Source: a virus
Length of the DNA stretch: 36,406 bases
Strand: one strand, 5' to 3'
Virus record (IMG/VR): IMGVR_UViG_3300027917_000013
Positions within the stretch are counted from its first letter, which is position 1. Each line of letters begins with the position of its first letter. Of this stretch, positions 3,178-22,903 are shown piece after piece. Below the pieces are notes generated by a model that had not been told where the DNA came from, ran no database searches, and saw nothing but the letters and a program-made list of their open reading frames with translations. The translations under genes were made by a program, and so were the position numbers.

Positions 3178-4464
3178 TTACACTATGTTTACCGTTACCG
3201 ATTCGCCCAGGGTAATCCCATCATTCACATAAAGCAATTTTGGACTACCAACCGCGCTTGCTTTACCGACTTCAACTGTTCTTACTTGGATTTGTACGTT
3301 GCAAGCGTTGTTGTCCGTTCCCGCGGTATCCCGGTATTGGATAAGCAAGCGTTTGTTTGCATTATCAATTTCCGCTTGCCATTCTTTCGTGTTATCAGTT
3401 GGGTAAACCTTGGTTAATGTCTGCGTTACAATGTTCATTGTCCCTTGAGTATTTGCAATGACCCCCTCAAGTTTCCACGCGTAAAAATCCGCAAGGACAT
3501 TTTCCGCGCCCGCAATCAACGCCTCAAAATACCAAAGCGTATTTTCAATTAAGGGATATTGGTAACCCGTTACCCAACTTGATGACCAACTTGCAATTAA
3601 TTCCTCTTGGGAAATTAACGAGCATTGATTCATTCCTTGATAGGGGTCCGCGCCCGCATTATAAGAATTTACCCCGTTGCCCCAAACAATCCGCCCGTTG
3701 AAATACCCGTTGCCCGAATCGTCATTGCTTATGGTTTCCTCGCCAATGTGCAACCCCCCAAGTTGGTAATCCGTATAATGACGGTAACCAAATTGCATTA
3801 TCCATTGGGTCGGGCTTGCCCCGCTCCCCAATAAATCGTTTTGCTCCCCAACCTGTAAACTACTCCAAACGTCCCCTTGGGTCAAACAATTGATTGCCGC
3901 GTATTGCCCGGTATAAGTTGGGTAATCTGAAACCCCAGTTGCGGTTAAATCGTTGTTTTCCCCAACCGAATACCCTCCAAAAGTTTCGTCAATAATATCG
4001 TTGTTTGTACCAAAAATAAAAATATAATTGCCCTCCTCTATATCGTGATTTTCCCCAAAAGCAACAACCGCATATTGTCCGCCCGAATACGCGCCCGCAA
4101 CGTCAATATCAATTGCAAACCCGTAACCCAAGCAAAGATAAGAATATTGCCCCATATCAACCCCCGCGCCTCCAAGGACAACGGAATAATCCGAGCCCGC
4201 AACAATTTTATTGTAATTCCCGGTCAAAATACCGGAATAATCCGAGCCCGCAACGTCATTTGAATCGGTCCCCGTAAGTTGCAAGTCAACAACGTCCGCG
4301 CCCCGGTTCCCGGTCCCGTCCTCTTTTGCCCATTTTGTACCATGTATCCATGTAAAACCATCATCAACATTTCCCTTGATACCCTCCCCTAACATATCCC
4401 GAATCGTTTTCCTGATTAAGGGCTCAAGCCTTTTATAAAGCCCAGTAATATTATCCATGCTCAA
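3178..4464 (-). CDS. Tail fibre / receptor-binding protein (putative)
   Basis: 428 aa, the last large gene of the tail module, with an ATGA overlap to the upstream gene. It is Gly/Asn/Ser/Tyr-rich with short internal repeats (AGSDYSGILTGNYNKIVAGSDYSVVLGG), typical of beta-helical fibres. The C-terminal 15 aa match the repeat motif of the 894-aa protein. Confidence 0.6.
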   Translation of the reverse strand: MSMDNITGLYKRLEPLIRKTIRDMLGEGIKGNVDDGFTWIHGTKWAKEDGTGNRGADVVDLQLTGTDSNDVAGSDYSGILTGNYNKIVAGSDYSVVLGGAGVDMGQYSYLCLGYGFAIDIDVAGAYSGGQYAVVAFGENHDIEEGNYIFIFGTNNDIIDETFGGYSVGENNDLTATGVSDYPTYTGQYAAINCLTQGDVWSSLQVGEQNDLLGSGASPTQWIMQFGYRHYTDYQLGGLHIGEETISNDDSGNGYFNGRIVWGNGVNSYNAGADPYQGMNQCSLISQEELIASWSSSWVTGYQYPLIENTLWYFEALIAGAENVLADFYAWKLEGVIANTQGTMNIVTQTLTKVYPTDNTKEWQAEIDNANKRLLIQYRDTAGTDNNACNVQIQVRTVEVGKASAVGSPKLLYVNDGITLGESVTVNIV

Positions 4465-6008
4465 CCCTCGCGTATTGTAAAATCAAAGGGATTCAAAACG
4501 TCCCTTGTTTCCATTATTCTATAACCGCGCTTTGGGGAATACTCCGATTCCTCAATAAAAAAATGAGTCGGGTTGCTTATGCGCGTTGTGTTAATTGTAT
4601 CGGGTACAACTCCCTTAAGCCTTGTCCAATTCCCAACCGGGCAATCCTCGGGCAATATTGGGTTGTCATATCTATCCGTTATCTTGCCCCAGGGGTCAAT
4701 TTTATAATCCTCGGACCATTGCGCGGGCTCCTCGTAAATGCGGACCCTCCGCAAATCCGAAATTGTTGCAAGCAACCTCCGGTTGTTGCTTGTCCCCATT
4801 TTTAAAAGTTGCTCAATCTCATATTGCGCGGTTGCCTCCCCGTCCCTGTAAGGGGAGGAGTTTACCCCGCTTGTATCCTCAACCTCATAAGATTCAATAA
4901 ACTCCCCATGCGAATCAAAAGCGTCCGTTATTTGGGTTGTTGATTCCAAATCGCCCAGGACCCGAAAATTAAAATCCCTGTCATAAGGTTGAATCCAACT
5001 TGAGGTTGATGTTTTATATAATTTTATTCCCCCGTCTTGATAACCGTCCGTTGTTGTACCCTCAATCATAAAATAATTGTCCGCATCAATTCCCCCCGAC
5101 CTTTGGATATGAATCCAATAAAGCGTTGAATCCGCCAAGGTTTGAGGGGTATCAAGCGTAAAGGTTACCCAATTCGAGTATGTTTCAACGTTCGCGCCCG
5201 CAATGTCATCGGTCCCTGAAAGTTGCGCGTTTGGCGCGTTCCCCGAATCACTATAAAGGGCAACCTCAAGGTTATCGGTTGGCGCGCCAACTTTCCAAAC
5301 GCTCAACTCAATCTTGCTTGCAACCCATGAGGACCCGCTTTTATTTTGGAAACTTTGCGCGGCTCGCGGTCTGTCATCCTCCCCGATTTCCCGCCCTCCC
5401 CAGGTGTCATTTTCCTCATAAGCAATTTTACCTTTATCGTTCGCGTAATACCTCCAACCCAGGGTATCCCACCAACCCCCGCACTCAATTCGGGCAACCG
5501 CTTGTTTTCTTACCTTGCCCCATTGGGGAGGGGTTGGGCTCGGGTATTTCCGGTTTTCAAGTTGTGTATCTTGAAATTGAGCAACTTGCGTTGCGGTTAT
5601 CTCATGCGCGGTTAATAATAATTCCTTGGTCCCATATTCCGCGGTTGAGGTTGCATCCGAGTCCCAAGTTGTTGTAAACCGCTCCCCATTTTCGGTATAA
5701 GCAACTGCAAGTTTGTTTGACATTGAATCAAGGGAAATTCCGTATTCGATTCCATGCTCCTCGAATATCGTTACCTTATTGATGAAACCCCACCAAACCC
5801 GCTTGCCGCGTTCCTTATGAAAGATATAAACCGGGCAACGCAACATTTCAACAAACTCGAATAATTCAAGTTGGGACCCGGTAGCAATCAATGACGCGTA
5901 TTTTGGACCCCCAATCGCATTTTTTGTAAACCGCTCAACCTCCAATGTTTCCCAATGGACCCGGGGATATTTACTAAAATCCCGCTTTTCAAAGGATACC
6001 GTAAGCAT
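4461..6008 (-). CDS. Distal tail / baseplate structural protein
   Basis: 515-aa ORF, the second gene after the tape measure. Assigned by position only; a Dit/Tal-type role was not verified. Confidence 0.55.
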   Translation of the reverse strand: MLTVSFEKRDFSKYPRVHWETLEVERFTKNAIGGPKYASLIATGSQLELFEFVEMLRCPVYIFHKERGKRVWWGFINKVTIFEEHGIEYGISLDSMSNKLAVAYTENGERFTTTWDSDATSTAEYGTKELLLTAHEITATQVAQFQDTQLENRKYPSPTPPQWGKVRKQAVARIECGGWWDTLGWRYYANDKGKIAYEENDTWGGREIGEDDRPRAAQSFQNKSGSSWVASKIELSVWKVGAPTDNLEVALYSDSGNAPNAQLSGTDDIAGANVETYSNWVTFTLDTPQTLADSTLYWIHIQRSGGIDADNYFMIEGTTTDGYQDGGIKLYKTSTSSWIQPYDRDFNFRVLGDLESTTQITDAFDSHGEFIESYEVEDTSGVNSSPYRDGEATAQYEIEQLLKMGTSNNRRLLATISDLRRVRIYEEPAQWSEDYKIDPWGKITDRYDNPILPEDCPVGNWTRLKGVVPDTINTTRISNPTHFFIEESEYSPKRGYRIMETRDVLNPFDFTIREG

Positions 6009-6009
6009 C

Positions 6010-7581
6010 TTAAAAGGTCCTTATCCTTGGGCGATAAATAACCGTAACGGATGCGGTCCGGTCAATGTCCGCGGTATTTGCGGTAATCGAATGTTGTGTA
6101 AATTGTATTCGATGATTTTGGTTTGGCATAAGCATCAACGGACTCCCCTCCGCAACCAAATTATTTACTTGCTCCCCTGATATTTCCTGGTAAAAGGTTT
6201 CATCAATCCCGTCATCAACAAGAATTGAGTTTTGAGCAATCCCGTCAAGACAAACAAACTTGCGCCAACCGTCCAAAACAACCATTTGTAAAACATCAAG
6301 GTTTATAGTTTCATCGGACCCGCTTACAGATTGGGACCAAAGTTTTAATGTTAAATCGGTTGGAGTCCCGCCCTCCAATCGAAACGGGGGAAGTTGAAAC
6401 GTTGCAAACTCGCGCCATAAACGCGATATTGCCTCATAAGTATCATCAAATTGAAACCAACCGGACTCCCATAAAATATTAGTATCATAATAAATTTTTA
6501 ACGCATATCTGCAATTTGTTATATCCGTCCCGTCCCAAAACCGCATTATTGCCCGAACATAAGCCCCACGCGCCGCGTTAAGCATCCCGCTTGGTAACGT
6601 CCAAGTACAAAGCGCGCTTGCGCTTCCGGACAATACATTATAAGCCCGGTATATTAAAGAGCTTGCGCCCGCATCAACCGTATTACTCCCCCCAGTACAA
6701 TCCTCAACCTCAAGCATATAACCAAATTGCAACGGGGTTGCCAACCGATTCATACCAACCCAAACCGTTTCAAGGTCCGCGCCCGCGTCCGTATTGGTTA
6801 CCTTTAATTTAATCGGGGTTGGCTCGGTCCCCCCAATATTACTTGAGGAAATATCAACGTAATTTTGCACATAATAAATTTTTATTGCATCCCCCGCGGC
6901 CTCATTTACAACGGTTTCCTCATAAACTGTTAAAGTTGTTGAGCTCGCGGTTGCAATTGTATAAATCCCGTCATTGCTTGTTGAGCCCCTCAAACTGATA
7001 ATATCGCCCGCGGAAAATACCCCAAAACCCGAGCCCGAATCCGCAATGGTATCGGGCGCGGTAAACGAAACCGTATTATTACTAAACGCCTCCCCGCCCA
7101 TTGGATTCTTAATTGTTACCGAAGTCCCCGACCCTGATTGATTCTCAATGGTTAAGGTTGTTTCGGTATTCGCCTCCCAGTAATCCCGCCTTGTAAATAT
7201 CAAAAGAAATTCCCCGGATTTGGTTGCCCAAATTGCACCAAGCAACCGTTTCGGACCCTCAATGCTCCCCGCGTCCTCCGATTCGCTCCGCCTTACGATT
7301 TCGGACCTGTAAAGCGTTGATAAGGAATCGGGTTGAAATTTTATATATACCTTGTCGCCAACCCCGGTATCATATCTTGATTCCGCGTTCCTTAAAGCCC
7401 GCTCAATATTTTCAATTGCAGTTTGGAAATTTGCCGCGCTTGAGGATTTTATAAAAAGCCTTATCCGTTCCGTAACAATCCCGCCCTTGCCCGCCTCGGG
7501 GACATAATCCAAAAGGATATAATCCCCGCTTGTCAAGTTGATTGTTGTTGACCCGTAAATAATTTGTAAGGTATGCGCCAT
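6010..7581 (-). CDS. Distal tail structural protein
   Basis: 523-aa ORF immediately downstream of the tape measure gene. Assigned by position only. Confidence 0.55.
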   Translation of the reverse strand: MAHTLQIIYGSTTINLTSGDYILLDYVPEAGKGGIVTERIRLFIKSSSAANFQTAIENIERALRNAESRYDTGVGDKVYIKFQPDSLSTLYRSEIVRRSESEDAGSIEGPKRLLGAIWATKSGEFLLIFTRRDYWEANTETTLTIENQSGSGTSVTIKNPMGGEAFSNNTVSFTAPDTIADSGSGFGVFSAGDIISLRGSTSNDGIYTIATASSTTLTVYEETVVNEAAGDAIKIYYVQNYVDISSSNIGGTEPTPIKLKVTNTDAGADLETVWVGMNRLATPLQFGYMLEVEDCTGGSNTVDAGASSLIYRAYNVLSGSASALCTWTLPSGMLNAARGAYVRAIMRFWDGTDITNCRYALKIYYDTNILWESGWFQFDDTYEAISRLWREFATFQLPPFRLEGGTPTDLTLKLWSQSVSGSDETINLDVLQMVVLDGWRKFVCLDGIAQNSILVDDGIDETFYQEISGEQVNNLVAEGSPLMLMPNQNHRIQFTQHSITANTADIDRTASVTVIYRPRIRTF

Positions 7582-7585
7582 TTAT

Positions 7586-9637
7586 TTACCTGTATTCTTG
7601 AATCCTGCTTGCCAGTTTCCAAGCAAACTCCTCAAAATCCATATCGGACACAATTTGAGCCCCGGGGATGCTTACATTTATATTTGTCCCTGGGGGAGTC
7701 TCCCCTTGAGGGGTAACCGTTACAGTTTCCCCCCGGGTTGCCATAAAATTAACCGGGACCCTATCAATGCCCGGGCTCCCCTCAACAAGGAATTGCCCGC
7801 CGAATTGCATTTTTACTTTATTGTGTACCAAATGATTATAAACAAAATAAGATTGCGTTTTTGCAACTGAAAAAGTATATACCTTGCTCTTTCCAACACA
7901 AGGAATTATCCCTTTGATTTCATCAAATCCGCCCTCAACAAGCATAATTTTATTTTCTTTTGTAAGGTCCCGGGTTTCAACCCAACCCGCTTTTATATCA
8001 AACCAAGGATGCTCCGGGGAGCAAATAAAACTTGAGTCGTTGAATATAACCTCAAGTAAATCATCCCGCTCAAATTGGAATATTTCCGCTACCTCATTCA
8101 TTACAGGTTTTTCAAGGTTTTCATCATAAGACCAAACCAAATCCCCAACCTTGATTTCCTCAATTACCTTAAACCCGGAATAAATGTTAACGAGGGTCCC
8201 AGGGGCAAAGCAACCCCCGCCTCCCCCGTCCCCCTCGTCTTTCTTGTCGTCTCCCCCATTGTCCCCGCCTCCCCCGGGTATTTTCTTTAAATCATCAAGC
8301 CCTTTAACATCAAGCTCAATTGGGATATAAATACTTTCGGGTAATAAGTCAAATTCGTTTCCCAATTCAAGCAAATCATCAACAACGTCATTTACCGCGG
8401 TCCCTTGGTCCTCCCAATCCCGCTCAAGACGGGCAAGGGCAAGTTGAGCCTTGACGGTATCGGAGTCAAGTCCCCCAATCTTGGTTGCAACCTCAACAAA
8501 GATTGACTCAAGCTCGGGCAATTCCTCTTCACTCGCCTTTTTATAAGCCTCGTTAAGATGCTCCATTGCCTCCGCCGCGAGTCTCGCGTCCGTTACCTTT
8601 TGCAAGGACAACGCAAGGTTGCGGGTCTTTTGCTCCGCCTCCCCCGCCTCTTTATTGGTTGTCTGCAATCCCTTGTTCCAACCGTCAATTGCGGTATCCC
8701 CCATTTCAAGAGCTTTATTTAAAGCAAGTTGCGCCTTTTGCGCGTTATATTCCTCCTCGGTTAAACGATAAAAATAAATTGGCATATCTTTAACCGCGTC
8801 CCGGTATTCCTCAATCGTATTTGTTGACTCAAGAAATCTTTGATTTTGCTCTTTGGTTGCATCAATTACCGCAAATATCCCGTCAAGCCAAGGATTCGCG
8901 CCCTCCGCAACCCAGGTTGCAAACCCAACTTTCAAATCATCCATTGTTGCATTAAAACGGTCCAAACTTGAGGTTGCATTAAATCCCGCTTCATCAAGCG
9001 CGTTAAGTTTTCCTTCCGCCTCCTCCATTGTCGCAATAAGGAATCTTGTTTGACGGTCCGCCTCCGCAATGCCGTCATTTGCAAGTTCCTCCATTCGTTC
9101 CTTTACTTTCGCGCCTGAAATCCCGAACGTATCAAGCCTTAATATTGATTGGTTGGCAAGCAAAAGGGTAAATTCCTCAAACGCCTCTTTGGGTCCCTTA
9201 CCCATTGTTGCCCCAAGCGTTGTTGCAATGCGGGTCAATTTCGCGGCTTCATCCGCGTTTTCCGCAAGCCCCATTGACAATAAACGGGTTGCGTTTTGCA
9301 TCGCGTCCATTTTTGAGATTGTCCCCCCGGTTGCATCTTGGACCGCGTTTAACATTTCCTCCGCCGCGCGCCCTCCGCCCGCGTACGCTTTAAGGGCAAC
9401 CTCGGACCGTTGCGCGGCAATCCCCATTTCGTAAAGCTCGGGCAATGCTTTGATTGCGGACATTCCCAAATTTACGATTTGGTTACCCGCTCCGAGCATT
9501 ACCCCATCAAGAATAGAAAATTGACTCCCGGTCTTTTCGCCTTGTTTCCCCAGGTCCTCAAGGTCATTTTTAACATCCTGGGACCCGGTCCCTTGTTTTA
9601 CTACTCTTAAGATAATATCAAGTAAGGATTTGGACAT
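7586..9637 (-). CDS. Tape measure protein with a C-terminal Hint/BIL domain
   Basis: 683 aa, directly downstream of the G/GT chaperone pair, with its start overlapping the upstream stop as TAATG. The N-terminal roughly 450 aa are Ala/Glu/Leu/Lys-rich and look helical. A Gly/Asp linker, an intein-like block and a 77-aa tail follow. Confidence 0.8.
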   Translation of the reverse strand: MSKSLLDIILRVVKQGTGSQDVKNDLEDLGKQGEKTGSQFSILDGVMLGAGNQIVNLGMSAIKALPELYEMGIAAQRSEVALKAYAGGGRAAEEMLNAVQDATGGTISKMDAMQNATRLLSMGLAENADEAAKLTRIATTLGATMGKGPKEAFEEFTLLLANQSILRLDTFGISGAKVKERMEELANDGIAEADRQTRFLIATMEEAEGKLNALDEAGFNATSSLDRFNATMDDLKVGFATWVAEGANPWLDGIFAVIDATKEQNQRFLESTNTIEEYRDAVKDMPIYFYRLTEEEYNAQKAQLALNKALEMGDTAIDGWNKGLQTTNKEAGEAEQKTRNLALSLQKVTDARLAAEAMEHLNEAYKKASEEELPELESIFVEVATKIGGLDSDTVKAQLALARLERDWEDQGTAVNDVVDDLLELGNEFDLLPESIYIPIELDVKGLDDLKKIPGGGGDNGGDDKKDEGDGGGGGCFAPGTLVNIYSGFKVIEEIKVGDLVWSYDENLEKPVMNEVAEIFQFERDDLLEVIFNDSSFICSPEHPWFDIKAGWVETRDLTKENKIMLVEGGFDEIKGIIPCVGKSKVYTFSVAKTQSYFVYNHLVHNKVKMQFGGQFLVEGSPGIDRVPVNFMATRGETVTVTPQGETPPGTNINVSIPGAQIVSDMDFEEFAWKLASRIQEYR
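7820..8212 (-). other. Hint / bacterial intein-like (mini-intein-sized) domain inside the tape measure protein (residues 476-606)
   Basis: Intein blocks are readable. Block A is CFAPGTLVNIYSG. Block B is FICSPEHPWF. Block F is KVYTFSVAKTQSYFV. Block G is NHLVHN, followed by Lys at the +1 position. Confidence 0.7.
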
Positions 9638-10322
9638 TATTTGCGCCTTGGTTTATAACTGGGATGCTTTGCGCGCCATTCCGCAAAGTCTTTATCAACC
9701 TTTTTCCTATGCTCAACAAACCCCGGTAAATCATAAAGTAAAGCCCGGACCAAATCAATAAAATCATTTGGTAATTGGTCAACGTCCCAGGGAGCAACAA
9801 ACGGACCCCCAAGCGCGGTATTGACCATTCTTGCAATTTCAATATTGGATACCTCCGGGTTGCTTGTGTAACCGCTCCGAGCGGTTTGCAAAAGGTCTAA
9901 TTCAATTTTTTTTTGTAATGCTCCCGGTATTCTTGGAGCATATTAAAAGACCGTTTTTGGATAAACTCCCACAAAGCGGGGTCATCCTCAATCAAGTTTT
10001 CGGCAAGCTCTTTAACCTCCGCCTGGGTCCAATGGGTTTCCTCGTTTTCCGCTTGACTCCAGTTGTCCGCAAGCCAAGCATAATATTTGTCATTGATTGA
10101 CTCAATGGTCCCGGTAATTTGTTTCAATTTCTCAACATTGTCCGGGTCCGATTCTTTGAGCTTGCCAAGCGCGGTATTGAGCCCTTGTCTTATCGTTTCC
10201 CGCTCTTGCAGTTTTTCTCGGGTTGGATTAACCCAAACCTGGATTACCGCGCCCGCATACTCGGGAGCAAAATCCGCAAGGTCCAAAGGTCTTACAACTT
10301 TTTTATATTGTATTTTCATCAT
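9637..10322 (-). CDS. Tail assembly chaperone G-T fusion made by -1 programmed frameshift (about 228 aa)
   Basis: The -1 frame is open from the A9 run (9906-9914) through to the stop at 9637-9639. I read no stop between the slip site and the 84-aa ORF listed in the track. Confidence 0.65.
9897..10322 (-). CDS. Tail assembly chaperone (gpG-like)
   Basis: 141-aa acidic ORF just upstream of the tape measure gene, preceded by AAGAGGAGTCAA-ATG. It ends ...HYKKKLN*, with the Lys codons forming AAAAAAAAA. Confidence 0.7.
   Translation of the reverse strand: MMKIQYKKVVRPLDLADFAPEYAGAVIQVWVNPTREKLQERETIRQGLNTALGKLKESDPDNVEKLKQITGTIESINDKYYAWLADNWSQAENEETHWTQAEVKELAENLIEDDPALWEFIQKRSFNMLQEYREHYKKKLN
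9906..9914 (-). promoter_or_regulatory. Slippery sequence A_AAA_AAA for -1 ribosomal frameshifting
   Basis: The minus strand reads CAT TAC AAA AAA AAA TTG AAT TAG. Nine consecutive A residues lie 2 codons before the gpG-like stop, and the downstream ORF is in the -1 frame. Confidence 0.65.
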
Positions 10323-13875: not shown

Positions 13876-15279
13876 TTACAACCTCCGATAAAAACCAAAT
13901 TCGCCCTCGGGGGGGACAATGCGGTTTGCATCAAGCCAAACCTGAAACGGTTTTGAATGGTCAAAATGTTGGGGCATTGTGTCTTGTTGCCCAAAGTTGT
14001 TGTGAAAATAAAAAAGCCCGTCCGGTTTCAGTAATGCAAGCCATTTATCAAGCGTTGTCATCAATTCACCCGGATGAATATGCTCGATAACATCAACCGC
14101 AACAATCAAATCATATTTGAGCCCAACATTAATATAATCTTGATAGCAAGTATGGTCCCAAAGCAAAACGTTTTTATCATCCTGAAACCGGGTCATCATA
14201 AAATCACGTAATACCCCGGGCAATTCATAAACGTCAACCTGATTTGCTCCCCGCAAAACCTCAACCTCCCCGCCAATACCCCCGCCAACTACCAAGACCT
14301 TTTTATCCTTTATCTTTCGCAAGGGGTTTATGATTTGATGGTAAAACGGGGAAACATTCCATGCCAGTAAATCATATAAATATCCGTTTTCCTCGCGCCC
14401 GTAAAACTCGCGGTATTCCTCGGGGGTTTGCGGGTTTGCTTGCTCGAATGCGTTGCGGGTAAATTCGGTTCCCTTTACCGCGTAAGCAATAACATCATCC
14501 TGGGGGACCCCGGTAAAATCGGATATAAGCTCAACCAATGACAGGTAATCTTGCCATTTATCCCAAATGCCCGAAATCCTGATTTGCTCTTGATAGGTTT
14601 GCCAACCCGTTACAACCCGGGAAATATGCCCCGCTTTTACGCTCGTTGTTGAGCCAATCTTAAATTTGTATTTACCCCCCGCCTCCCTTGAAAATGCCAT
14701 ATCTTCACTTGTCCCCCCATGCCTCGGATACCAAAACCAATCAAACCGCTCGAGCGGGACCCCTGGGTTGTCATTCAAGATAGTTTCAAAAACCTCCCGC
14801 CTTATCAAAACGCAATGCAACCCAACTGCCGCGGTTGTTTCGGTAAAGTTGTCTTTCCAAACCAAGCATTGCATCAAATCCCCGAGCGTTGATTCCTTAA
14901 ACCAAATTGCCTCCGGGGGGAATCCCCGCCTTGTATAAAATGCCTGGAAAATGTCAAATTCAAAACCCTCGGGGACGGTCCGCAAGTCCTCAACGAAACC
15001 GGGACCAAATGACGCGTCCGAATCCAAAAAACAAAGGGTATCGTTGTTGCTCCGCAAGAATCCCCTTACAACCTCATTTGCCGCGGTATGAGCAACCCGG
15101 TCCTTGGCAATGATAAACGAGTCCCCCGTCCTCAACCCGGTTGTTATCAAATGGGACCAATCGGTTACAAACTGGGACTCAACGAGTTTTTCAAGACGCG
15201 TTGCAACACATATTGAGCCCCAATCAAGGGGAGCGGTTGCTTGCTCTTTGTTTACCTCATAATCAACTTTTGTTTCCAT
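13876..15279 (-). CDS. Glycosyltransferase (GT-A, DxD) fused to a class I SAM-dependent methyltransferase
   Basis: 467 aa from ATG 15279, preceded by AAGAGGAGTCAAAAGATT. The N-terminal half has CFLDSDA (DxD) and GTSEDMAF motifs and looks paralogous to the 268-aa GT. The C-terminal half has VLVVGGGIGGE (motif I), DLIVAVDVIEHI and LKPDGLFY. The ORF-track start at 15357 is a TTG that runs through a hairpin. Confidence 0.7.
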   Translation of the reverse strand: METKVDYEVNKEQATAPLDWGSICVATRLEKLVESQFVTDWSHLITTGLRTGDSFIIAKDRVAHTAANEVVRGFLRSNNDTLCFLDSDASFGPGFVEDLRTVPEGFEFDIFQAFYTRRGFPPEAIWFKESTLGDLMQCLVWKDNFTETTAAVGLHCVLIRREVFETILNDNPGVPLERFDWFWYPRHGGTSEDMAFSREAGGKYKFKIGSTTSVKAGHISRVVTGWQTYQEQIRISGIWDKWQDYLSLVELISDFTGVPQDDVIAYAVKGTEFTRNAFEQANPQTPEEYREFYGREENGYLYDLLAWNVSPFYHQIINPLRKIKDKKVLVVGGGIGGEVEVLRGANQVDVYELPGVLRDFMMTRFQDDKNVLLWDHTCYQDYINVGLKYDLIVAVDVIEHIHPGELMTTLDKWLALLKPDGLFYFHNNFGQQDTMPQHFDHSKPFQVWLDANRIVPPEGEFGFYRRL

Positions 15280-15301
15280 AATCTTTTGACTCCTCTTTTT
15301 C

Positions 15302-15351
15302 GAGCGGGGGAATTGGAGGAGGAGGAGTCCAAACCTCCGCTTCCCCCGCTC
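15302..15351 (-). promoter_or_regulatory. Large GC-rich stem-loop between the 143-aa gene and the GT-MTase gene
   Basis: There are perfect 11-bp arms, GAGCGGGGGAA (15302-15312) and TTCCCCCGCTC (15341-15351). An inner GGAGG/CCTCC pairing adds to the stem. No U-tract follows on the minus strand. Confidence 0.5.
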
Positions 15352-15355
15352 TACC

Positions 15356-15382
15356 AAATAAGCGCGCCGGGGGTTGCGCTTA
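15356..15382 (-). terminator. Weak intrinsic-terminator-like hairpin at the stop of the 143-aa gene
   Basis: The minus-strand RNA reads UAAGCGCAACCCCCGGCGCGCUUAUUUGG. This gives a 6-bp AAGCGC/GCGCUU stem, a 10-nt loop and a U-rich trail. Confidence 0.35.
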
Positions 15383-17229: not shown

Positions 17230-17965
17230 TGTTAAATTCCTCCGTTAAGTCTTGTATAACATTTGATAAACTGTCAATTACCTCGGGGGGTAATTCCGTT
17301 TCACTCGCGTCGGGTATTGGTTCATTTGTGTTTGGTTCAACGTCATTATCCTCGGGTAATTCTGAAACGGGGTCATCTTGCTCCCCGTCATCATTCGTTT
17401 GTGTTTCCTTAAGCAATTCATCAAGCGTTTTAAGGGCAAGCCTCAACGCGTCTTGGTTTGCGGGTATTGTTACAATGCTTGACTCCAACATTTCCCATTT
17501 TTTGTAAACCCGTCCCCGTTGCAAGGGCTCCCCAGTTTCATCGGTACGCTTTTCCCATTCAACCGGGATAAACCCAACTGACATTGCATTTAAAAATCCC
17601 TTGTCCCATAAATCCCTTACAAGGTCCGCCTTGGCATTAATGCCCCGCTCAATAAACTGAAAGACCTTTTTGACTCCCTTACCCGGTATCAAGGAAACCT
17701 CAATTGCTTTTGCGACAACCGCGCCCGGGTCATAATAGTTATGCCCAAAAAGGATTACCGGGTTTTTATAATAATTGGTAAGGTCCGCGCCCTCCGCAAG
17801 TAATATATCCCCGTCCCGGTCAACTGATTCAGTTGAAACCATTGCCTCATAAATGCCCGCCTCGGGGTCAACCGCTTTTGATTCAATTACAAATGTTTTA
17901 CGTAATTTAACGTTACCTTTTTCAATCATTGCGTTAAAAAACGATTCGGTATTTGCGTCATTCAT
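17219..17965 (-). CDS. Prohead protease, HK97 / S78 family
   Basis: 248 aa. The sequence MVSTESVDRDGDILLAEG...PVILFGHNY matches the conserved N-terminal core of HK97-type prohead proteases. It lies between the portal and capsid genes. Confidence 0.8.
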   Translation of the reverse strand: MNDANTESFFNAMIEKGNVKLRKTFVIESKAVDPEAGIYEAMVSTESVDRDGDILLAEGADLTNYYKNPVILFGHNYYDPGAVVAKAIEVSLIPGKGVKKVFQFIERGINAKADLVRDLWDKGFLNAMSVGFIPVEWEKRTDETGEPLQRGRVYKKWEMLESSIVTIPANQDALRLALKTLDELLKETQTNDDGEQDDPVSELPEDNDVEPNTNEPIPDASETELPPEVIDSLSNVIQDLTEEFNNDG

Positions 17966-20082
17966 TCCTCAACCTCCGGTATCATCACACATAAACAATT
18001 GATAATATTGCCCGGGCTCCCGTTTGGGTCCCCTGGGTATTCCAATTGCTCATTGCCAACAACAAACATTTCATTGATTCCAACTCTTTGGTTATGCGCC
18101 GCGGCATGTTCGTCGCGCGTCCTCCCTGGGAGCAATGCGGAAATCCATATTTTCTTTTTGACAACCTCGGATTGGTCCCATGCTTGTTGGTCCGCAAAGT
18201 TGCTTGCGCCCGTCATTGTTGTCCTTGCAATACGCTCCGTTTGATAATCCGATTTGCGCCCGCCAAAGAAATTATTGATACGCTCTTGCATTGACGGAAT
18301 ACCCTCCCCCGCAAGCTCGGACTCTTGGATTATACCAATTAACCCGTTCCATGTTGTATCATTTACCTTTTGGGCAACCGTCCTTAATATATGCTCAATG
18401 CCAGTCCTTACAAGGGGAGCGTCAACGTCAAAGAGTAAATCAATCCCGAGCCCGTCAAGCTCATTTTGTCCAACCTGGGCAACCGTCCCTGCAACTGGGG
18501 GACCAAAACGCTTTATAAATTCGTCAACCCATTGCTCAAAATCAAATAAGTCCTCGGGGGTTGGAATCCGCTCGGGCTCCCGGGATTGAAACTTGCCGCG
18601 CCCGTAAATGCGGGAATTGCGGAGCCTTGCGTTAATTTCGTTTTGTTGGTCTTGGAAATAACGCTTAAGGGCGCGCCTCATGGAGTCAACTTGCTTGTCA
18701 ATTTGTTTTTGAGCCTTGCCCCAAATCGCCTCATGTTCTGCGCTTCCGTATTCGGGACCAATCATTTTATTTTTGGGGTCATTGATTCCCAGGTTATCAA
18801 CCCGAGGAGTAACAAACGCGCCCGCCTCCGAAATCGGGACCAAATTAACGGGAATATATCCAATGTCCCCGCCCTCAACCTCGGGCAAACCCAACCCCAG
18901 GTATTCGTTAAGCTCATTGACGGGATACCCCCGGTTTGCCAAGCGGTCAAGTTGGTCAATCTTGCTTGTCTTGTCCTCTTGCAACTGGGGAATCATTGTC
19001 AAGTTGGTCCTTACCTCAAGACCCCGCTCAATCTTGTTGTTTTTGCGGAAAAAGCGGGTTAACCCGTCATCCCTGAAACGGATAAGCGGGACAAGCGTCA
19101 AGGTCCACAAAACCCGGTCCGCGGTGTCAAAGTTTTCATAAGTATCCCGCCCGTAACCCATGATTTCATCGGGGACCCCGAAAAGCGCGCCCACCTCGTC
19201 GCGGTTAAACTTGCGTTGCTCCAACCATTCAACGTCTTTGGGAGGAAATGAAAAGGGCTTAATATCTGTAACCCCGTCCTCAAGTATGATTGGTTTATGC
19301 AACCCCTCCCCGGTCCCATAATCCCGCATAAGCTCATTCATATATTCATCCCGCTCAGTTTTGGTCAAACCATTGGGAGCAATCAAAGCATAATCCGGGC
19401 GGGCTTGATTGCGAAAAAATAACCGGGTCCATGCTTGCGCCAATTGGTCAATGATAATACCAATGCGGACCGCGGTAATGGGAGCAAGCCCGCGCCAAGG
19501 GTTGAGCGGGTTATAAAACTTGAAATGTATAAACTCCTCCGGGTCAAGTATGTAATCCGGTCCGTAACCGTCATCAATCTTGTAACCCGCAACCTTGCGG
19601 TACCTTTTTCCTTTTTTCTCGGGTTTTACATGGAATATATGAGGCTCCCTGGGATACATTTCAAGGATTGCATTTTGCGTTTGGTTCATTACCAATTCAA
19701 CCCCTTGCTCCCCGCCAAGCATCATATTAACAACCCATTCCCCCCAAAAATCCGCTTGTGACATTTCCTCATTGGGATAATCCAAAACGTCATTCAAAGG
19801 ATGATTATCCTTGGTTTCGTAACTGTCCCCGGTTTGCTCAACAACATTTATATCAAGCGGAGCAATCGAATCCTTGAGGACCTTGATTGCTTTGTGTACC
19901 CAAGTTTGGGTTTGATAGAAATCCGCATTGCCCAAGAACGTCCCCCGAGCAACCCCCCGCTCCTCCCCGCTCATTATCCGCATGATTGGCAACCTCCATT
20001 GCAAATCGGGATGCAAATCATACAATGGGGAGGGGTTGGTTTGTTTGTTTACCCGGTCCGTTATTCGTTTCAATATACTCAT
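17962..20082 (-). CDS. Portal protein fused to a MuF-like (SPP1 gp7-like) minor head protein domain
   Basis: 706 aa. The N-terminal roughly 430 aa are portal-like by position and length. The C-terminus has MuF hallmarks: RIARTTMTGASNFADQQAW, WISALLPGRTRDEHAAAHNQ and PGDPNGSPGNIINCLCV. Confidence 0.75.
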   Translation of the reverse strand: MSILKRITDRVNKQTNPSPLYDLHPDLQWRLPIMRIMSGEERGVARGTFLGNADFYQTQTWVHKAIKVLKDSIAPLDINVVEQTGDSYETKDNHPLNDVLDYPNEEMSQADFWGEWVVNMMLGGEQGVELVMNQTQNAILEMYPREPHIFHVKPEKKGKRYRKVAGYKIDDGYGPDYILDPEEFIHFKFYNPLNPWRGLAPITAVRIGIIIDQLAQAWTRLFFRNQARPDYALIAPNGLTKTERDEYMNELMRDYGTGEGLHKPIILEDGVTDIKPFSFPPKDVEWLEQRKFNRDEVGALFGVPDEIMGYGRDTYENFDTADRVLWTLTLVPLIRFRDDGLTRFFRKNNKIERGLEVRTNLTMIPQLQEDKTSKIDQLDRLANRGYPVNELNEYLGLGLPEVEGGDIGYIPVNLVPISEAGAFVTPRVDNLGINDPKNKMIGPEYGSAEHEAIWGKAQKQIDKQVDSMRRALKRYFQDQQNEINARLRNSRIYGRGKFQSREPERIPTPEDLFDFEQWVDEFIKRFGPPVAGTVAQVGQNELDGLGIDLLFDVDAPLVRTGIEHILRTVAQKVNDTTWNGLIGIIQESELAGEGIPSMQERINNFFGGRKSDYQTERIARTTMTGASNFADQQAWDQSEVVKKKIWISALLPGRTRDEHAAAHNQRVGINEMFVVGNEQLEYPGDPNGSPGNIINCLCVMIPEVEE

Positions 20083-20222
20083 AATTTAATACCCATTTCA
20101 TAACCCTCGATTAATGCCGCGACAAAGTATTTACAAAGTTTAACCGTTGCCCCGGCAATTATCCCCAAACCAATCGGTATTAAAGCAAACAACCAACCAA
20201 GCGCGGATTTGATTTTTGTCAA
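20079..20222 (-). CDS. Small single-TM peptide (47 aa, TTG start), absent from the ORF track
   Basis: My hand translation is (M)TKIKSALGWLFALIPIGLGIIAGATVKLCKYFVAALIEGYEMGIKL. GGGAGG lies 8 nt upstream. The TTG overlaps the TGA of the 894-aa gene, and the stop overlaps the portal ATG as ATGA. This fills an otherwise unexplained 136-nt gap. Confidence 0.45.
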   Translation of the reverse strand: MTKIKSALGWLFALIPIGLGIIAGATVKLCKYFVAALIEGYEMGIKL

Positions 20223-22903
20223 CGTTTGTGCCTCCCGCGTAATTTGTTGTAACGATTACCTGGGACCCCCAACTGATTCAAACGGTCATACCGTAATTTT
20301 CGTTTTACCCATTTCCGGGGTTGCTCCTCGGGGGTAACAATATCAATGTCAACCAATTCCCCAAGGATAACCGCGTCAAGTACATTAATTGATAAATCCC
20401 CGCCCGATAAAACCAAAACGTTTATTGCATCGGCAACCGTTACATTATCCGTTACCCCGATTTGCAAAGCATCCGGTAACAAGAGGCTTGCCGCGTCCGC
20501 AACCGTCAAACCATCAAGGGCTTGAATAAATAATAAGGTTGCAAGGTCAATTTCATCCGCAACTGTAACCCCGTCCGTTTCCGATATTTCGAGTTTGAGC
20601 GGGTCCAAGTTTGCCGCGTCCGCAACGGTAACCCCGTCCTCAACGTTGATATAAAGGATGCCCTCAACCGGGATTGATACGTTTACCGCATCGGCAACCG
20701 TTACCGCGTCCGTTTCAAATATCTCAATCAATAACGGGTCAACCTGGGCAATGTCCGCAACCTCAACCCCGTCCGTTACATCAACTTGCAACGGGGTCAT
20801 TGTTACGCTTACAAATTCATCAACGGTTAACCCATCGGAAACATTGACATATATAACACCCTCAACCGGGAGGTTGACGTTGATTTCCTCCCCAACCGTT
20901 ACACCCTCCGCAATCGCGATTTGCAACGCGTCCGGTAATGATACGCTTACAAATTCGCCCAGGTCAACATTGTCCGCAACGTCAATCCTTATGGGTATTT
21001 CAACGTTTGTAAACTCCCCGAGAGTCAACCCCTCCGCAATCGCGATTTGTAAAGCATCGGGCAAAATGACGTTGATAAATTCGGCAAGCGTTGTCCCGTC
21101 CGTAACGTCAATTTGTAAAGCATCGGGCAAGGTTACGTTGATGATTTCGCCCAGGTTTACCCCGTCCGTTGTACTGATTTCGAGCTTGATTGCTCCTACC
21201 TGGGCAATGTCCGCAACGGTCAACCCGTCAAGCTCGGCAATCTGTAAAGCTCCCATTTCGAGGTTAACGATTTCCGCGATTGTTACCCCGTCCGTTTTGC
21301 TTATCTCAAGTTTGATTGGGGCAACTGCAACGATTTCGGAAACGATTACCCCGTCCGAAACCTCAATTGTTAGGTTTGCCTCCCCTGGGATATTGACGTT
21401 GACAAACTCGGAAACGGTCAACCCATCGGTTTTATTTATCTGTAACGCATCGGGGAGGGTTACGTTAACAAACTCCCCCAGGTTGATGTTATCGGATACG
21501 TTTACCTCAAGTTTAATTGGTCCAATATTGACAAACTCCGAAACTGTAACCCCGTCCGTTTCCGATATTTCCAAATTGGATAAAATGACGTTGATGATTT
21601 CCCCAAGGTTTACCGCGTCCGAAACATTGATTTGCAGATTACCCAAGCGGACCGTTACCAATTCGCCAAGCGTTATCCCCTCGGTTTCGGATATAAAGGA
21701 TTTGAGCCTTGCGGTTACTTGCTCCCCCAGGGTTACTCCGTCCGTTTCAACAATCCCGGCAAGTTTGGTTTCAACCGTTACGATTTCGTCAACCGTTACC
21801 CCGTCCGTTTCCGAAACGGATAAATCCCCGCCCAGGTCCAAAGTATTGAAATAAATATTGCTCCCGTCCGTAAATATGTACCCAATTTCATTTGAGCTTG
21901 ACGGAGGTTTTTCAACCATTAACCGGGTATATGTTCCGGTTTCAATTGCTCCCCCATCGGTCCAACCGCTCCCGGTATTATAAATGTAATGAACGTCCGC
22001 GCTTGTATCTATATAAAATATATATTGGTCCGTCCCAACATAAAGCGCATCAAGTAAATATTGTCTATTGGTAGATACTACGTTGTAACCTGTATCCGAT
22101 AAAGTATCAACGTCCGCGCCCTCATAAATGTTGTCATTATTATCCGCAAAAACAATCCAAGGGGTTGTGCCTGAAACGTCAATTGCCATGCCTGCACTTG
22201 CTTGGTCCGCAACCCCCTCATCCTCGGTTCCCCAGGTTCCGCTTGTCCGCTTGCGGTAATAACCGTCCTTATCGTTTGTTGTTTCAGTATAAGATGATGA
22301 ACCACTATAAACAACGTGCGGGTCATCTGCGGTGTCAAGGACCATATCAACCATATTACAATGTTCTTGTATATCGGTTGCGCTTACTTTTTCTTGGGTT
22401 GCCCAAGATGCCCCGGTCCGGTTTGAATAATAAGGGTGTCCGTATGTTGTACCCTTAATTTTTAAACCCATTGTTGTTAAAACGTGAGGTTTGTCATTGC
22501 TATCAATCCAAATTCTTATATCCCCGTAAGTTGTAAATGCCAATAAACCATCAACAACAATACCAACTGATTCCCAAGACCCCAACCATGAATCGGTTCC
22601 GGTATCATATACCCGATAATAAAGAGGGGTTGCAAAAGGTAAACCAACAACAACGTGAATATCATCCGTTGAATCAATTGCCGCGTCCATTGCAGTAAAT
22701 TCTTCATCCGCGCCAACAATGTCATTATCTGTAACGGTTGATTGCAATGACGGGGAAGTATCAACATTTTTATATATCCGAAATTCGGGGTATCCGTATG
22801 TCCCTTTTGTACCTCCCGGGACAATAGCATACCAAACCCCGCCCGAGGTTTTAACAACCGCTCCGCGCAAATCTAAACTTGCCGCGTTGATTGTGATTGC
22901 CAT
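20219..22903 (-). CDS. Large virion-associated repeat protein with a propeller-like N-terminal domain, 23 tandem repeats and a basic tail
   Basis: 894-aa ORF. The N-terminal roughly 355 aa show a recurring D..D.PHVV / G..W pattern suggesting beta-propeller blades. Residues 364-856 are tandem repeats. The last 38 aa contain 13 Lys/Arg. Confidence 0.85.
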   Translation of the reverse strand: MAITINAASLDLRGAVVKTSGGVWYAIVPGGTKGTYGYPEFRIYKNVDTSPSLQSTVTDNDIVGADEEFTAMDAAIDSTDDIHVVVGLPFATPLYYRVYDTGTDSWLGSWESVGIVVDGLLAFTTYGDIRIWIDSNDKPHVLTTMGLKIKGTTYGHPYYSNRTGASWATQEKVSATDIQEHCNMVDMVLDTADDPHVVYSGSSSYTETTNDKDGYYRKRTSGTWGTEDEGVADQASAGMAIDVSGTTPWIVFADNNDNIYEGADVDTLSDTGYNVVSTNRQYLLDALYVGTDQYIFYIDTSADVHYIYNTGSGWTDGGAIETGTYTRLMVEKPPSSSNEIGYIFTDGSNIYFNTLDLGGDLSVSETDGVTVDEIVTVETKLAGIVETDGVTLGEQVTARLKSFISETEGITLGELVTVRLGNLQINVSDAVNLGEIINVILSNLEISETDGVTVSEFVNIGPIKLEVNVSDNINLGEFVNVTLPDALQINKTDGLTVSEFVNVNIPGEANLTIEVSDGVIVSEIVAVAPIKLEISKTDGVTIAEIVNLEMGALQIAELDGLTVADIAQVGAIKLEISTTDGVNLGEIINVTLPDALQIDVTDGTTLAEFINVILPDALQIAIAEGLTLGEFTNVEIPIRIDVADNVDLGEFVSVSLPDALQIAIAEGVTVGEEINVNLPVEGVIYVNVSDGLTVDEFVSVTMTPLQVDVTDGVEVADIAQVDPLLIEIFETDAVTVADAVNVSIPVEGILYINVEDGVTVADAANLDPLKLEISETDGVTVADEIDLATLLFIQALDGLTVADAASLLLPDALQIGVTDNVTVADAINVLVLSGGDLSINVLDAVILGELVDIDIVTPEEQPRKWVKRKLRYDRLNQLGVPGNRYNKLRGRHKR
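20336..21814 (-). repeat. Coding tandem repeat array (23 degenerate units of 15-25 aa, mostly 19-25)
   Basis: Units include SETDGVTVDEIVTVETKLAGIV, SDNINLGEFVNVTLPDALQIN and VTDGTTLAEFINVILPDALQIA. I parsed 23 units by hand. The periodicity also produces a 398-aa shadow ORF on the plus strand. Confidence 0.85.

Follow-up and report, generated by a model that had tools for sequence, protein, structure and literature searches.

Bacterial intein-like (BIL) domains have been described from variable regions of bacterial secreted and surface proteins, and most of what is known of BIL splicing, which does without a side-chain nucleophile, comes from engineered constructs. To our knowledge, their biological role has been unclear since they were described in 2003. 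The type-A BILs are reportedly those of Amitai (2003) and Dassa (2004), with the C. thermocellum domain in Protein Data Bank (PDB) entry 2LWY as one of them. In a review (PMC4031507), BILs are described as lacking a nucleophilic residue at +1, the position directly after the domain, and type-A BILs as ending in His-Asn; type-A splicing is given as formation of an N-terminal thioester, cyclisation of the Asn, and aminolysis of the thioester by the alpha-amine that is thereby released. Here, we analysed IMG/VR virus record IMGVR_UViG_3300027917_000013 (the whole stretch of 36,406 nucleotides, hereafter the window), in which a minus-strand gene at 7586..9637 encodes a 683-aa protein that we assign to the siphovirus-type tape measure proteins (TMPs). 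Residues 476-606 of this TMP (7820..8212) form a Hint domain of the type-A BIL/PT-HINT class, 131 aa long and without an endonuclease, which is a known class of self-processing domain in a new, recurrent, and site-specific virion context. The reading that we favour, at a probability of roughly 55%, is that this domain is a self-removing, endonuclease-less, intein-like passenger, the excision of which would restore a TMP of ~552 aa.

The initial annotation had placed the intein blocks A, B, F, and G within these 131 residues, and in the translation every motif lies where it was said to lie. Block A runs from C476 to S503 (8129-8212, on the minus strand like all features of this gene) and begins with the Cys476 codon (8210..8212), residue 1 of the domain and the predicted thioester nucleophile, which is preceded by Gly475. 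Block B (FICSPEHPWFD, residues 537-547, 7997..8029) contains the TxxH motif in the form Ser540-x-x-His543. Block F is KVYTFSVAKTQSYFV (residues 585-599, 7841..7885), with the non-consensus residues Thr588 and Gln595, and block G (NHLVHN, residues 601-606, 7820..7837) ends in His605-Asn606, of which the Asn is predicted to form the succinimide. Residues 460-683 were searched exhaustively with HMMER against 1.84 billion representatives, which gave 7,616 relatives at E<=0.001, all of them metagenomic; the best 150 of the 7,616 were inspected. In the clade alignment of 199 members, residue 1 is Cys in 197, the block B His is likewise present in 197, with Thr (182) or Ser (17) opening the motif, and the terminal His and Asn are both invariant (199/199). 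Among the 186 complete domains in the best matches, 184 have Cys as residue 1 and 79 have Gly at -1, and the +1 residue is Lys in 92 and Cys, Ser, or Thr in 27. The junctions of the query domain (Gly at -1, Cys1, His-Asn, Lys at +1) are therefore the modal states of the clade and not a degenerate accident. The primary catalytic positions (Cys1, His543, His605, and Asn606) are all intact, and apart from the two block F residues the conserved Hint core is kept.

Profile searches, one of the checks that had been proposed, gave a match to PF07591 (PT-HINT) of 41.2 bits (E=2.4e-10) on the whole 683-aa protein and of 44.3 bits (E=2.8e-11) on the excised Hint segment, against a Pfam gathering cut-off of 27.7; weaker, sub-threshold matches to Hint, Intein_splicing, and Hint_2 overlie the same residues. 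The AlphaFold2 (AF2) model of residues 460-620 is confident (mean pLDDT 84.2, 110 residues at >=90) and all-beta, with 13 strands. When the Hint model was compared with the PDB by Foldseek, ranks 1-5 were BIL domains, among them 6tmm/6y75 (Tetrahymena BUBL BIL2, E~1e-11) and the C. thermocellum BIL 2lwy (TM score 0.90, root-mean-square deviation 1.4 A), and some sixty mini-inteins and Hedgehog structures ranked below them; there were 63 Hint/intein matches in the PDB at E<=1e-3, with the best TM scores at 0.77-0.90. A phmmer search of the PDB sequences likewise ranked 6y75/6tmm and 2lwy (the latter full length, E=4e-5) above the inteins. The Hint assignment is far beyond chance resemblance, and both the fold and the profile result bear out what had been proposed from the letters alone. 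The mini-intein size holds as well: in the sequence and the AF2 model there is no insert between blocks B and F and no endonuclease domain in the 131 aa, and no homing endonuclease family was found among the proteins of the whole window. Three small plus-strand open reading frames (ORFs) here (7598-7870, 7884-8129, and 8075-8290) overlap the long minus-strand gene and were interpreted as its shadows.

The relation of the domain to its host protein was evaluated by comparison with 127 homologues of the TMP, found among 5.8 billion proteins, most of which are 520-540 aa long and match only the N-terminal ~65% and the C-terminal end of the query. PF07591 occurs in the query alone among these 127, and Hint-like sequence was found in 0 of the 119 other TMP family members. 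In 10 aligned homologues, a clean gap stands in place of the Hint, and a short variable hinge leads directly into the motif [FY]Q[HR]GGxFxVxGxxGxDRVPVxFxATxGExVTVTP. In the query, a linker, the Hint, and Lys-Val-Lys lie between the hinge and this conserved motif, the cassette standing 3 residues upstream of it. The Gly/Asp-rich linker (PGGGGDNGGDDKKDEGDGGGGG, residues 454-475, 8213..8278, GC 0.727 owing to its Gly/Asp codons) is ~19 aa longer than in the Hint-less homologues; the linker, Lys607 at +1, and the 77-aa C-terminal tail were all as initially annotated. A 14-nt exact direct repeat (CCCCGCCTCCCCCG, read on the plus strand, at 8215-8228 and 8263-8276) lies inside the linker just upstream of the Hint, and may have arisen through duplication by slippage or be a remnant of the insertion.

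The base composition of the Hint DNA is foreign to the gene. Its GC is 0.379 and its third-position GC (GC3) 0.359, compared to 0.476 and 0.477 for the TMP body and a GC of 0.494 for the tail; with z=-3.0, it falls in the lowest percentile of 393-nt windows across the structural module. The AT-richness runs on through AAA GTA AAA (7811..7819), the codons of Lys607-Val608-Lys609 (+1 to +3), which have no counterpart in the Hint-less homologues and, judged by alignment and composition, probably belong to the inserted segment. Because of the clean alignment gap and the foreign composition, we take the inserted unit to be Cys476-Lys609 (134 residues) and its origin to be a lateral acquisition from an AT-richer source. 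The initial description of a domain built into the TMP is thus better replaced by that of a lateral insertion, present in 1 of 120 family members. The tail of the query is nearer to that of its Hint-less homologue P0002 (49% identity) than to that of the Hint-bearing TMP P0176 (27%), which indicates that in the query lineage the Hint arrived without a tail.

In sequence and predicted structure, the query Hint fits a type-A BIL in every respect that could be checked: Cys476, Ser540-Pro-Glu-His543, His605-Asn606, Lys607 rather than Cys, Ser, or Thr at +1, and BIL domains rather than inteins as the closest solved relatives by both phmmer and Foldseek. The type-A pattern proposed at the outset therefore stands. 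A class 1 intein would agree with the precise insertion at a conserved site and with the intein-less alleles among homologues; it does not agree with Lys607 at +1, the following residues (KVKM) offering no Cys, Ser, or Thr, or with the lack of a homing endonuclease, or a trace of the decay of one, within the 131-aa domain or the window. The claim that splicing is chemically blocked holds for the canonical route, given the Lys at +1, and fails for type-A BIL splicing by aminolysis (PMC4031507).

Canonical inteins have been catalogued in actinophage TMPs (bioRxiv 10.1101/2025.01.02.630785), and three relatives of the query Hint (P0123-P0125) have Ser at +1, so it may be asked whether the query is a class 1 mini-intein that lost its +1 Cys, Ser, or Thr by mutation. 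We regard this as very improbable. A non-nucleophilic +1 residue is found in 159 of the 186 clade domains (the 92 with Lys included), the TMP-borne copies have K, K, K, Y, F, A, M, I, and T at this position, and the query is closest to BIL domains in sequence and structure. Two other readings of the domain were ruled out. In a toxin-release context, PT-HINT would be followed by a toxin, whereas the 77 aa after the query Hint are the conserved TMP C-terminal module, and profile searches gave no toxin family match in the 683-aa protein. A Hedgehog-like (Hog) protein would have a sterol- or adduct-recognition region C-terminal to the Hint, where the TMP motif is found instead; the match to PF01079 (Hedgehog) covers only the N-terminal residues 474-517 and at 20 bits is below the gathering cut-off of 29.7.

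The same insertion was found to recur in other tape measure proteins. Long helical proteins with a single Hint before a short, motif-bearing tail include P0170 and P0231 (~670 aa), P0213 (719 aa), P0189 (1056 aa), P0176 (1154 aa), P0269 (1377 aa), P0188 (1495 aa), P0200 (3650 aa), P0216 (4015 aa), and the shorter P0151. The end of the Hint stands 0-3 residues before an FQHGG-type motif in P0151, P0170, P0176, P0189, P0213, P0231, and P0277, the spacer is ~7-10 residues in P0188 and P0269, and it is longer in P0200 and P0216. The junction reads HN|KVK-MQFGG in the query and HN|Y-KFAGG, HN|K-KFAGGG, HN|M-KGQYG, HN|A-KAQYG, or HN|-KNARG in the others. Because the motif profile made from the query family was too narrow for the variants in other TMPs, these were found by regular expression and manual reading. 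The P0170 body matches PHROG TMP families, and the P0176 family (164 homologues) includes proteins named 'lambda family phage tail tape measure protein' in their source, with PF09718. The tails of Hint-less members of this family (...SD|FQHGGHFIVPPGYPQDRY..SGEEVLVVTP, ...FQRGG...IIGEGGMELFIP, or FAHGVGMMGENGPEAIVP) indicate that the motif variants are one lambda-type TMP C-terminal motif; the form FQHGG...GE.V is common to the query and the P0176 family. On this comparison of sequences, at least 10 other TMP clusters with unrelated bodies carry a similar Hint at the same site.

The presence of the Hint is sporadic in the P0176 family also, with PF07591 in 3 of the 120 relatives listed. The phage carrying P0176 is a true relative of the phage of the window, though the TMP bodies are unrelated: the two tail genes downstream of the query TMP (523 aa, 6010-7581, and 515 aa, 4461-6008; minus strand, together 4461..7581) are homologous to the genes after P0176, with blastp identities of 44.5% over the full length (E=3e-147) and 46% (E=4e-54).

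The history of the Hint differs among TMP pairs. P0170 and P0231 are 27% identical in their bodies, 90% in their Hints, and 67% in their tails, which indicates lateral transfer of the Hint between very different TMP genes. P0189 and P0277 have diverged evenly (59/56/63% identity for body, Hint, and tail), which indicates long retention of the Hint with its catalytic residues kept. The TMP-borne Hints of P0176, P0151, P0170, P0231, P0189, P0188, and P0269 are mutual best matches (40-44%).

Several other members of the Hint clade were recorded as side observations. In the giant helical proteins P0200 and P0216 (the latter at L005:3-8774, plus strand), the chain finishes with poly-Gly, a single Hint, and a C-terminal motif of the TMP type; tails of extreme length would follow if these proteins are tape measures. 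Head-to-tail tandem Hint arrays, in which as many as 10 stretches match and the linking sequence is ...VHN-KGG(G)-CF..., are found in P0127, P0128, P0130, P0141, P0143, and many others. P0123 (L004:182-1087), P0124, and P0125 are Ala/Gly-rich proteins of ~230-400 aa on contigs of 1-1.6 kb, in which poly-Gly, the Hint, and SKAKGG are followed by ..SDSIPA..GEFVV; with Ser at +1, their sequence would make canonical splicing possible. P0122 (L002:10001-11230) is a cellular relative of the clade, an archaeal chromosomal gene with MCM, S12/S7, and EF-2 as neighbours, and its product is membrane-anchored, with poly-Gly, the Hint, and HN-K before a long poly-Asp region; it was the second-best match of a word-indexed search and was set aside as archaeal chromosomal and uninformative for phage. 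In the deposited gut phage Ruminococcus phage NatCom_3870 (PV036417.1, L001:5640-6437), up to three Hint matches lie in unannotated genes, one of them in a coding sequence of 265 aa; one coding sequence starts almost at the Hint and may be a mis-called or split gene.

The Hint lies precisely where the ruler meets the conserved C-terminal module, as do its counterparts in other TMPs, and this position could also be read as that of a domesticated self-cleavage module. The Hint would then be kept because it severs the TMP at Cys476 and/or Asn606, either while the tail is being assembled or afterwards, and so frees a 77-aa tip-anchored peptide without a protease. C-terminal processing of the lambda TMP, to which the initial annotation had appealed, is real, and the T5 TMP (pb2) is cut after R1127 in morphogenesis, 'as lambda TMP', with its C-terminal fragment staying in the tip/hub (PMC10038345). 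If true, a cleavage device of this kind would give a mechanism for the long-known C-terminal processing of TMPs, for which no protease is named in the T5 paper (PMC10038345). Cleavage dominates in vitro for type-A BILs (PMC4031507), and the Hints of P0189 and P0277 have been kept through ~40% divergence. However, TMPs work without the Hint, which is found in 1 of 120 members of the query family and in 3 of the 120 listed of the P0176 family; this sporadic distribution and the foreign base composition argue against a required maturation role. Cutting right after folding would moreover part the ruler from the tip anchor before assembly unless it were delayed, and no control of this sort can be seen in the sequence. 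We therefore consider a cleavage module unlikely.

A second tail-tip host of the Hint was found in the IMG/VR scan, in which the same broad Hint clade occurs at residues ~23-151 of proteins of ~2,065 aa (for example L008:7941-14138, plus strand; the loci are L006-L009, L012-L020, L022-L025, L027, and L043-L097). Pfam matches to FNIII-A_GpJ and Phage-tail_3 identify these as gpJ-like tip proteins. The leader before the Hint is the real N-terminus, its ATG following directly on the stop of the upstream gene. When the part after the Hint was used as the query in IMG/VR, 43 of 55 gpJ-like loci had the Hint and 12 had none; the 55 loci are not de-replicated and amount to ~11 different N-termini with the Hint and 7 different ones without it. 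Wherever it is present, the Hint occupies a single site in the Gly/Lys-rich N-terminus, inside G[AS]KGG|KGG, with Gly or Lys at +1. The leader, 20-28 residues long, keeps the motif [VI]P.I.G in Hint-plus and Hint-minus alleles alike over 45-100% identity. Such conservation upstream of the Hint is expected if the flanks are re-joined after excision, whereas simple cleavage would have no need of it.

The TMP, with its C-terminal end, and the gpJ-like protein, with its N-terminal end, come together in the tail tip, and that both carry Hints of one clade there raises the possibility of thioester-driven ligation. Here, the thioester at Gly475 would react with an amine or thiol on another molecule, for example a protein of the tail tip or a component of the host envelope, to which the TMP body would become covalently attached. 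The nearest solved structures are BUBL BIL2 domains, and BIL domains at the Tetrahymena BUBL locus (the work behind PDB 6tmm/6y75) are said to attach ubiquitin-like domains; poly-Gly flanks would give accessible termini. The structural similarity to BUBL BIL2 is, however, generic to the fold, nothing in the window points to an acceptor, and in this phage the Hint is in the TMP only. The sporadic distribution also speaks against a built-in assembly step, and we hold ligation to be highly improbable. The broader idea that BIL-type Hints, placed where TMP body and tail meet and at the start of gpJ-like hub proteins, constitute a hitherto unrecognised, assembly-coupled self-processing system of phage tail tips, standing in by protease-free cleavage for the missing protease of gpH*-type maturation or else acting by thioester-driven joining of tip components, seems unlikely to us.

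The self-removing passenger is preferred because the chain of the TMP has to be continuous and because the Hint is optional in every family examined. Until the tail is assembled, at the least, the ruler of a siphovirus TMP must stay connected to the C-terminus that is bound at the tip, and the ability of type-A BILs to splice without a +1 nucleophile makes such re-joining possible for the query. The cassette was acquired laterally into a flexible, Gly-rich hinge before the conserved C-terminal motif. In the proposed sequence of events, the Hint would fold after translation, and Cys476 would attack the Gly475 carbonyl to form the thioester; Asn606 would then cyclise and break the chain ahead of Lys607, whose alpha-amine, now free, would attack the thioester, so that the Hint is removed, body and tail are re-joined, and a TMP of ~552 aa assembles normally, with cleavage at the junctions expected as a side reaction. 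Such an element would persist because it takes itself out of the protein, and spread would occur by recombination between co-infecting phages, for which the conserved C-terminal motif and the runs of Gly codons may serve as flanks. What the sequences show is the identity of the domain and its catalytic residues, the insertion with its foreign composition, the recurrent site, the sporadic occurrence, lateral movement, and long retention; that the Hint is active, and that its productive outcome is re-ligation and not cleavage alone, is inferred.

Several observations weigh against this interpretation. Position 588 in block F is Thr in the query and Asn in 93% of relatives, and position 595 is Gln and His in 81%. 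In canonical inteins, the equivalent block F residues help with step coordination and Asn cyclisation. Activity, and C-terminal cleavage above all, is therefore not to be assumed for the query. The query protein is a singleton cluster from a metagenomic contig recorded in two sources, so that selection on this copy is not measurable. The query Hint is about as far from TMP-type Hints as from those of the toxin type (PT-HINT), at ~37% identity to either, and thus points to neither as its precise source lineage. The recurrence of the Hint at one site could reflect selection for a function there. Lastly, in type-A BILs 'cleavage products dominate' over splicing (PMC4031507), and efficient re-ligation is accordingly not guaranteed.

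The altered block F also suggests another reading, that the Hint is an inactive or crippled passenger: it would remain part of the mature TMP, a folded bead lodged in the cavity of the tail tip or in the tube lumen, and would be tolerated thanks to the long, Gly-rich linker. The two substitutions are at well-conserved columns, the linker before the Hint is unusually long and flexible, and other TMPs carry folded enzymatic domains. Set against this are the intact Cys1, His543, His605, and Asn606, the conserved core, and the confident predicted fold, and the anomalous base composition suggests that the Hint arrived recently and has had little time to decay. Three globular domains of 15 kDa per trimer would also have to be accommodated in a narrow lumen. 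An inert bead thus appears unlikely, and the self-removing passenger remains our preferred interpretation.

The identity of the host protein was assessed by context, synteny and the C-terminal motif, because the curated TMP profiles gave no match: the body of the 683-aa protein had no TMP-family match in Pfam, NCBIfam, or PHROG, a PDB profile search with the TMP family returned coiled-coil noise only, and one family member had a weak match to phrog_167 (E=0.003). On the minus strand, the genes run in the order TerS, TerL, an 894-aa unknown, portal (with MuF), protease, probable capsid, adaptor, tail-completion, 339 aa, 141 aa, 84 aa, the 683-aa protein, and then 523, 515, and 428 aa. P0002, the closest Hint-less homologue, lies in a syntenic module of 338 aa, 140 aa, 63 aa, and the TMP of 536 aa, followed by a gene matching SPP1_Dit in Pfam. 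The 141-aa (9897-10322) and 84-aa (9637-9891) ORFs, together 9637..10322, are predicted to be a tail assembly chaperone pair of the G/GT type with a -1 frameshift. The 141-aa ORF ends in ...CAT TAC AAA AAA AAA TTG AAT TAG, with an A9 slippery run at 9906-9914 from which the -1 frame is open into the 84-aa ORF. A G/GT-type chaperone arrangement precedes tape measure genes, and on this context the identity of the 683-aa protein as a siphovirus-type TMP is regarded as settled.

Within the protein, the helical body that would serve as the ruler (residues 1-453, 8279..9637) aligns with all family homologues and has 17 predicted helices in residues 5-429, at low confidence. The full-length AF2 model (pLDDT 48) was used for secondary structure only, the Hint being unfolded in it because the alignment is gapped there; at low confidence, it gives an all-helical body, then two strands and a terminal helix. 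The lambda-type C-terminal motif (QFGGQFLVEGSPGIDRVPVNFMATRGETVTVTP, residues 611-645, 7703..7807) is common to the Hint-less family members and the P0176 family. The C-terminal end (residues 646-683, 7589..7702), with a low-confidence predicted amphipathic helix at residues 668-682, is presumed to be the tip-anchoring end by analogy with T5 and 80alpha, the trimeric C-terminal TMP residues of which sit in the hub (PMC10038345).

Elsewhere in the window, three further minus-strand genes may be noted. The terminase and portal genes are separated by the 894-aa ORF (20219-22903), which has no Pfam or PHROG match, and the portal (17962-20082) is fused to a MuF-like head-morphogenesis domain, with phrog_2662 over its whole length and phrog_2468 at residues 466-704. 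A 493-aa ORF in the head/neck module (13876-15357) has a C-terminal S-adenosylmethionine-dependent methyltransferase domain (PF13489, E=6.6e-7, residues 346-453). At L099, the tail-module locus of a Hint-less relative, a Methyltransf_23 gene lies upstream and is cut at the start of the locus.

We found no literature report of domains of the BIL or PT-HINT type in TMPs or gpJ-like tail-tip proteins; where a Hint domain and a TMP are mentioned together, the inteins concerned are those of helicase, terminase, ribonucleotide reductase, or dCTP deaminase. A tblastn search of 50,697 deposited phage genomes with the query TMP, the P0170 Hint plus tail, and the gpJ-type N-terminus gave no annotated TMP among the matches listed, which were inteins in helicase, polymerase, portal, and terminase genes, or hypothetical proteins. 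A narrow profile scan of genome contigs gave no relative and no cultured-host example.

If the Hint removes itself, BIL splicing would appear to be required in nature, in a virion protein that has to be unbroken to measure the length of the tail, and the Hint-plus and Hint-minus alleles that stand side by side in two tail-tip protein families would offer a natural, genetically tractable test of BIL splicing in vivo. Intein-like elements would be extended to a class that is free of the need for Cys, Ser, or Thr at the insertion site and is thus able to invade Gly-rich hinges. At 131 aa and without an endonuclease, such domains might be of use as small ligation or cleavage modules for protein engineering. 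For annotation, PT-HINT matches in viral contigs should not be taken as toxin markers.

The locus can finally be set beside the systems it most resembles. The processing of lambda gpH to H* and of T5 pb2 (after R1127) has in common with it a cut near the tip-bound C-terminal part of the TMP, the Hint lying at the corresponding body/tail boundary; no Hint or protease is named for these phages in PMC10038345, and cleavage is a constant feature there, whereas the Hint is an optional insert in the query. The PT-HINT domains of polymorphic toxins are the best-scoring Pfam family, and many of the nearest Hint relatives are of the toxin type, with HN followed by xC. In such toxins, PT-HINT normally stands ahead of a C-terminal toxin, the release of which is attributed to it, whereas the query Hint precedes the 77-aa TMP end. 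Phage mini-inteins, including those of actinophage TMPs, also lie at a conserved site of an essential protein, occur sporadically among homologues, and have the Hint fold, which in inteins is self-excising; the query differs in having no Cys, Ser, or Thr at +1 and no endonuclease within it or nearby, and in being closer to BILs in sequence and structure. The Tetrahymena BUBL BILs (6TMM/6Y75) are its best structural and sequence matches in the PDB, and with Hedgehog Hints it shares the junction tripeptide Gly-Cys-Phe, which we take to be the Hedgehog Hint junction motif. In both of these, the thioester is passed to an external nucleophile (a target lysine or cholesterol) by way of extra domains, and the query has no such partner or sterol-recognition region. 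With the type-A BILs, the query shares a Hint fold of ~130-140 aa, Cys1, a block B of the TxxH type, a His-Asn end, and the absence of both a +1 nucleophile and an endonuclease. Unlike the type-A BILs described so far, it stands at a conserved and recurrent site of a phage virion protein, with the presence/absence polymorphism of an intein.

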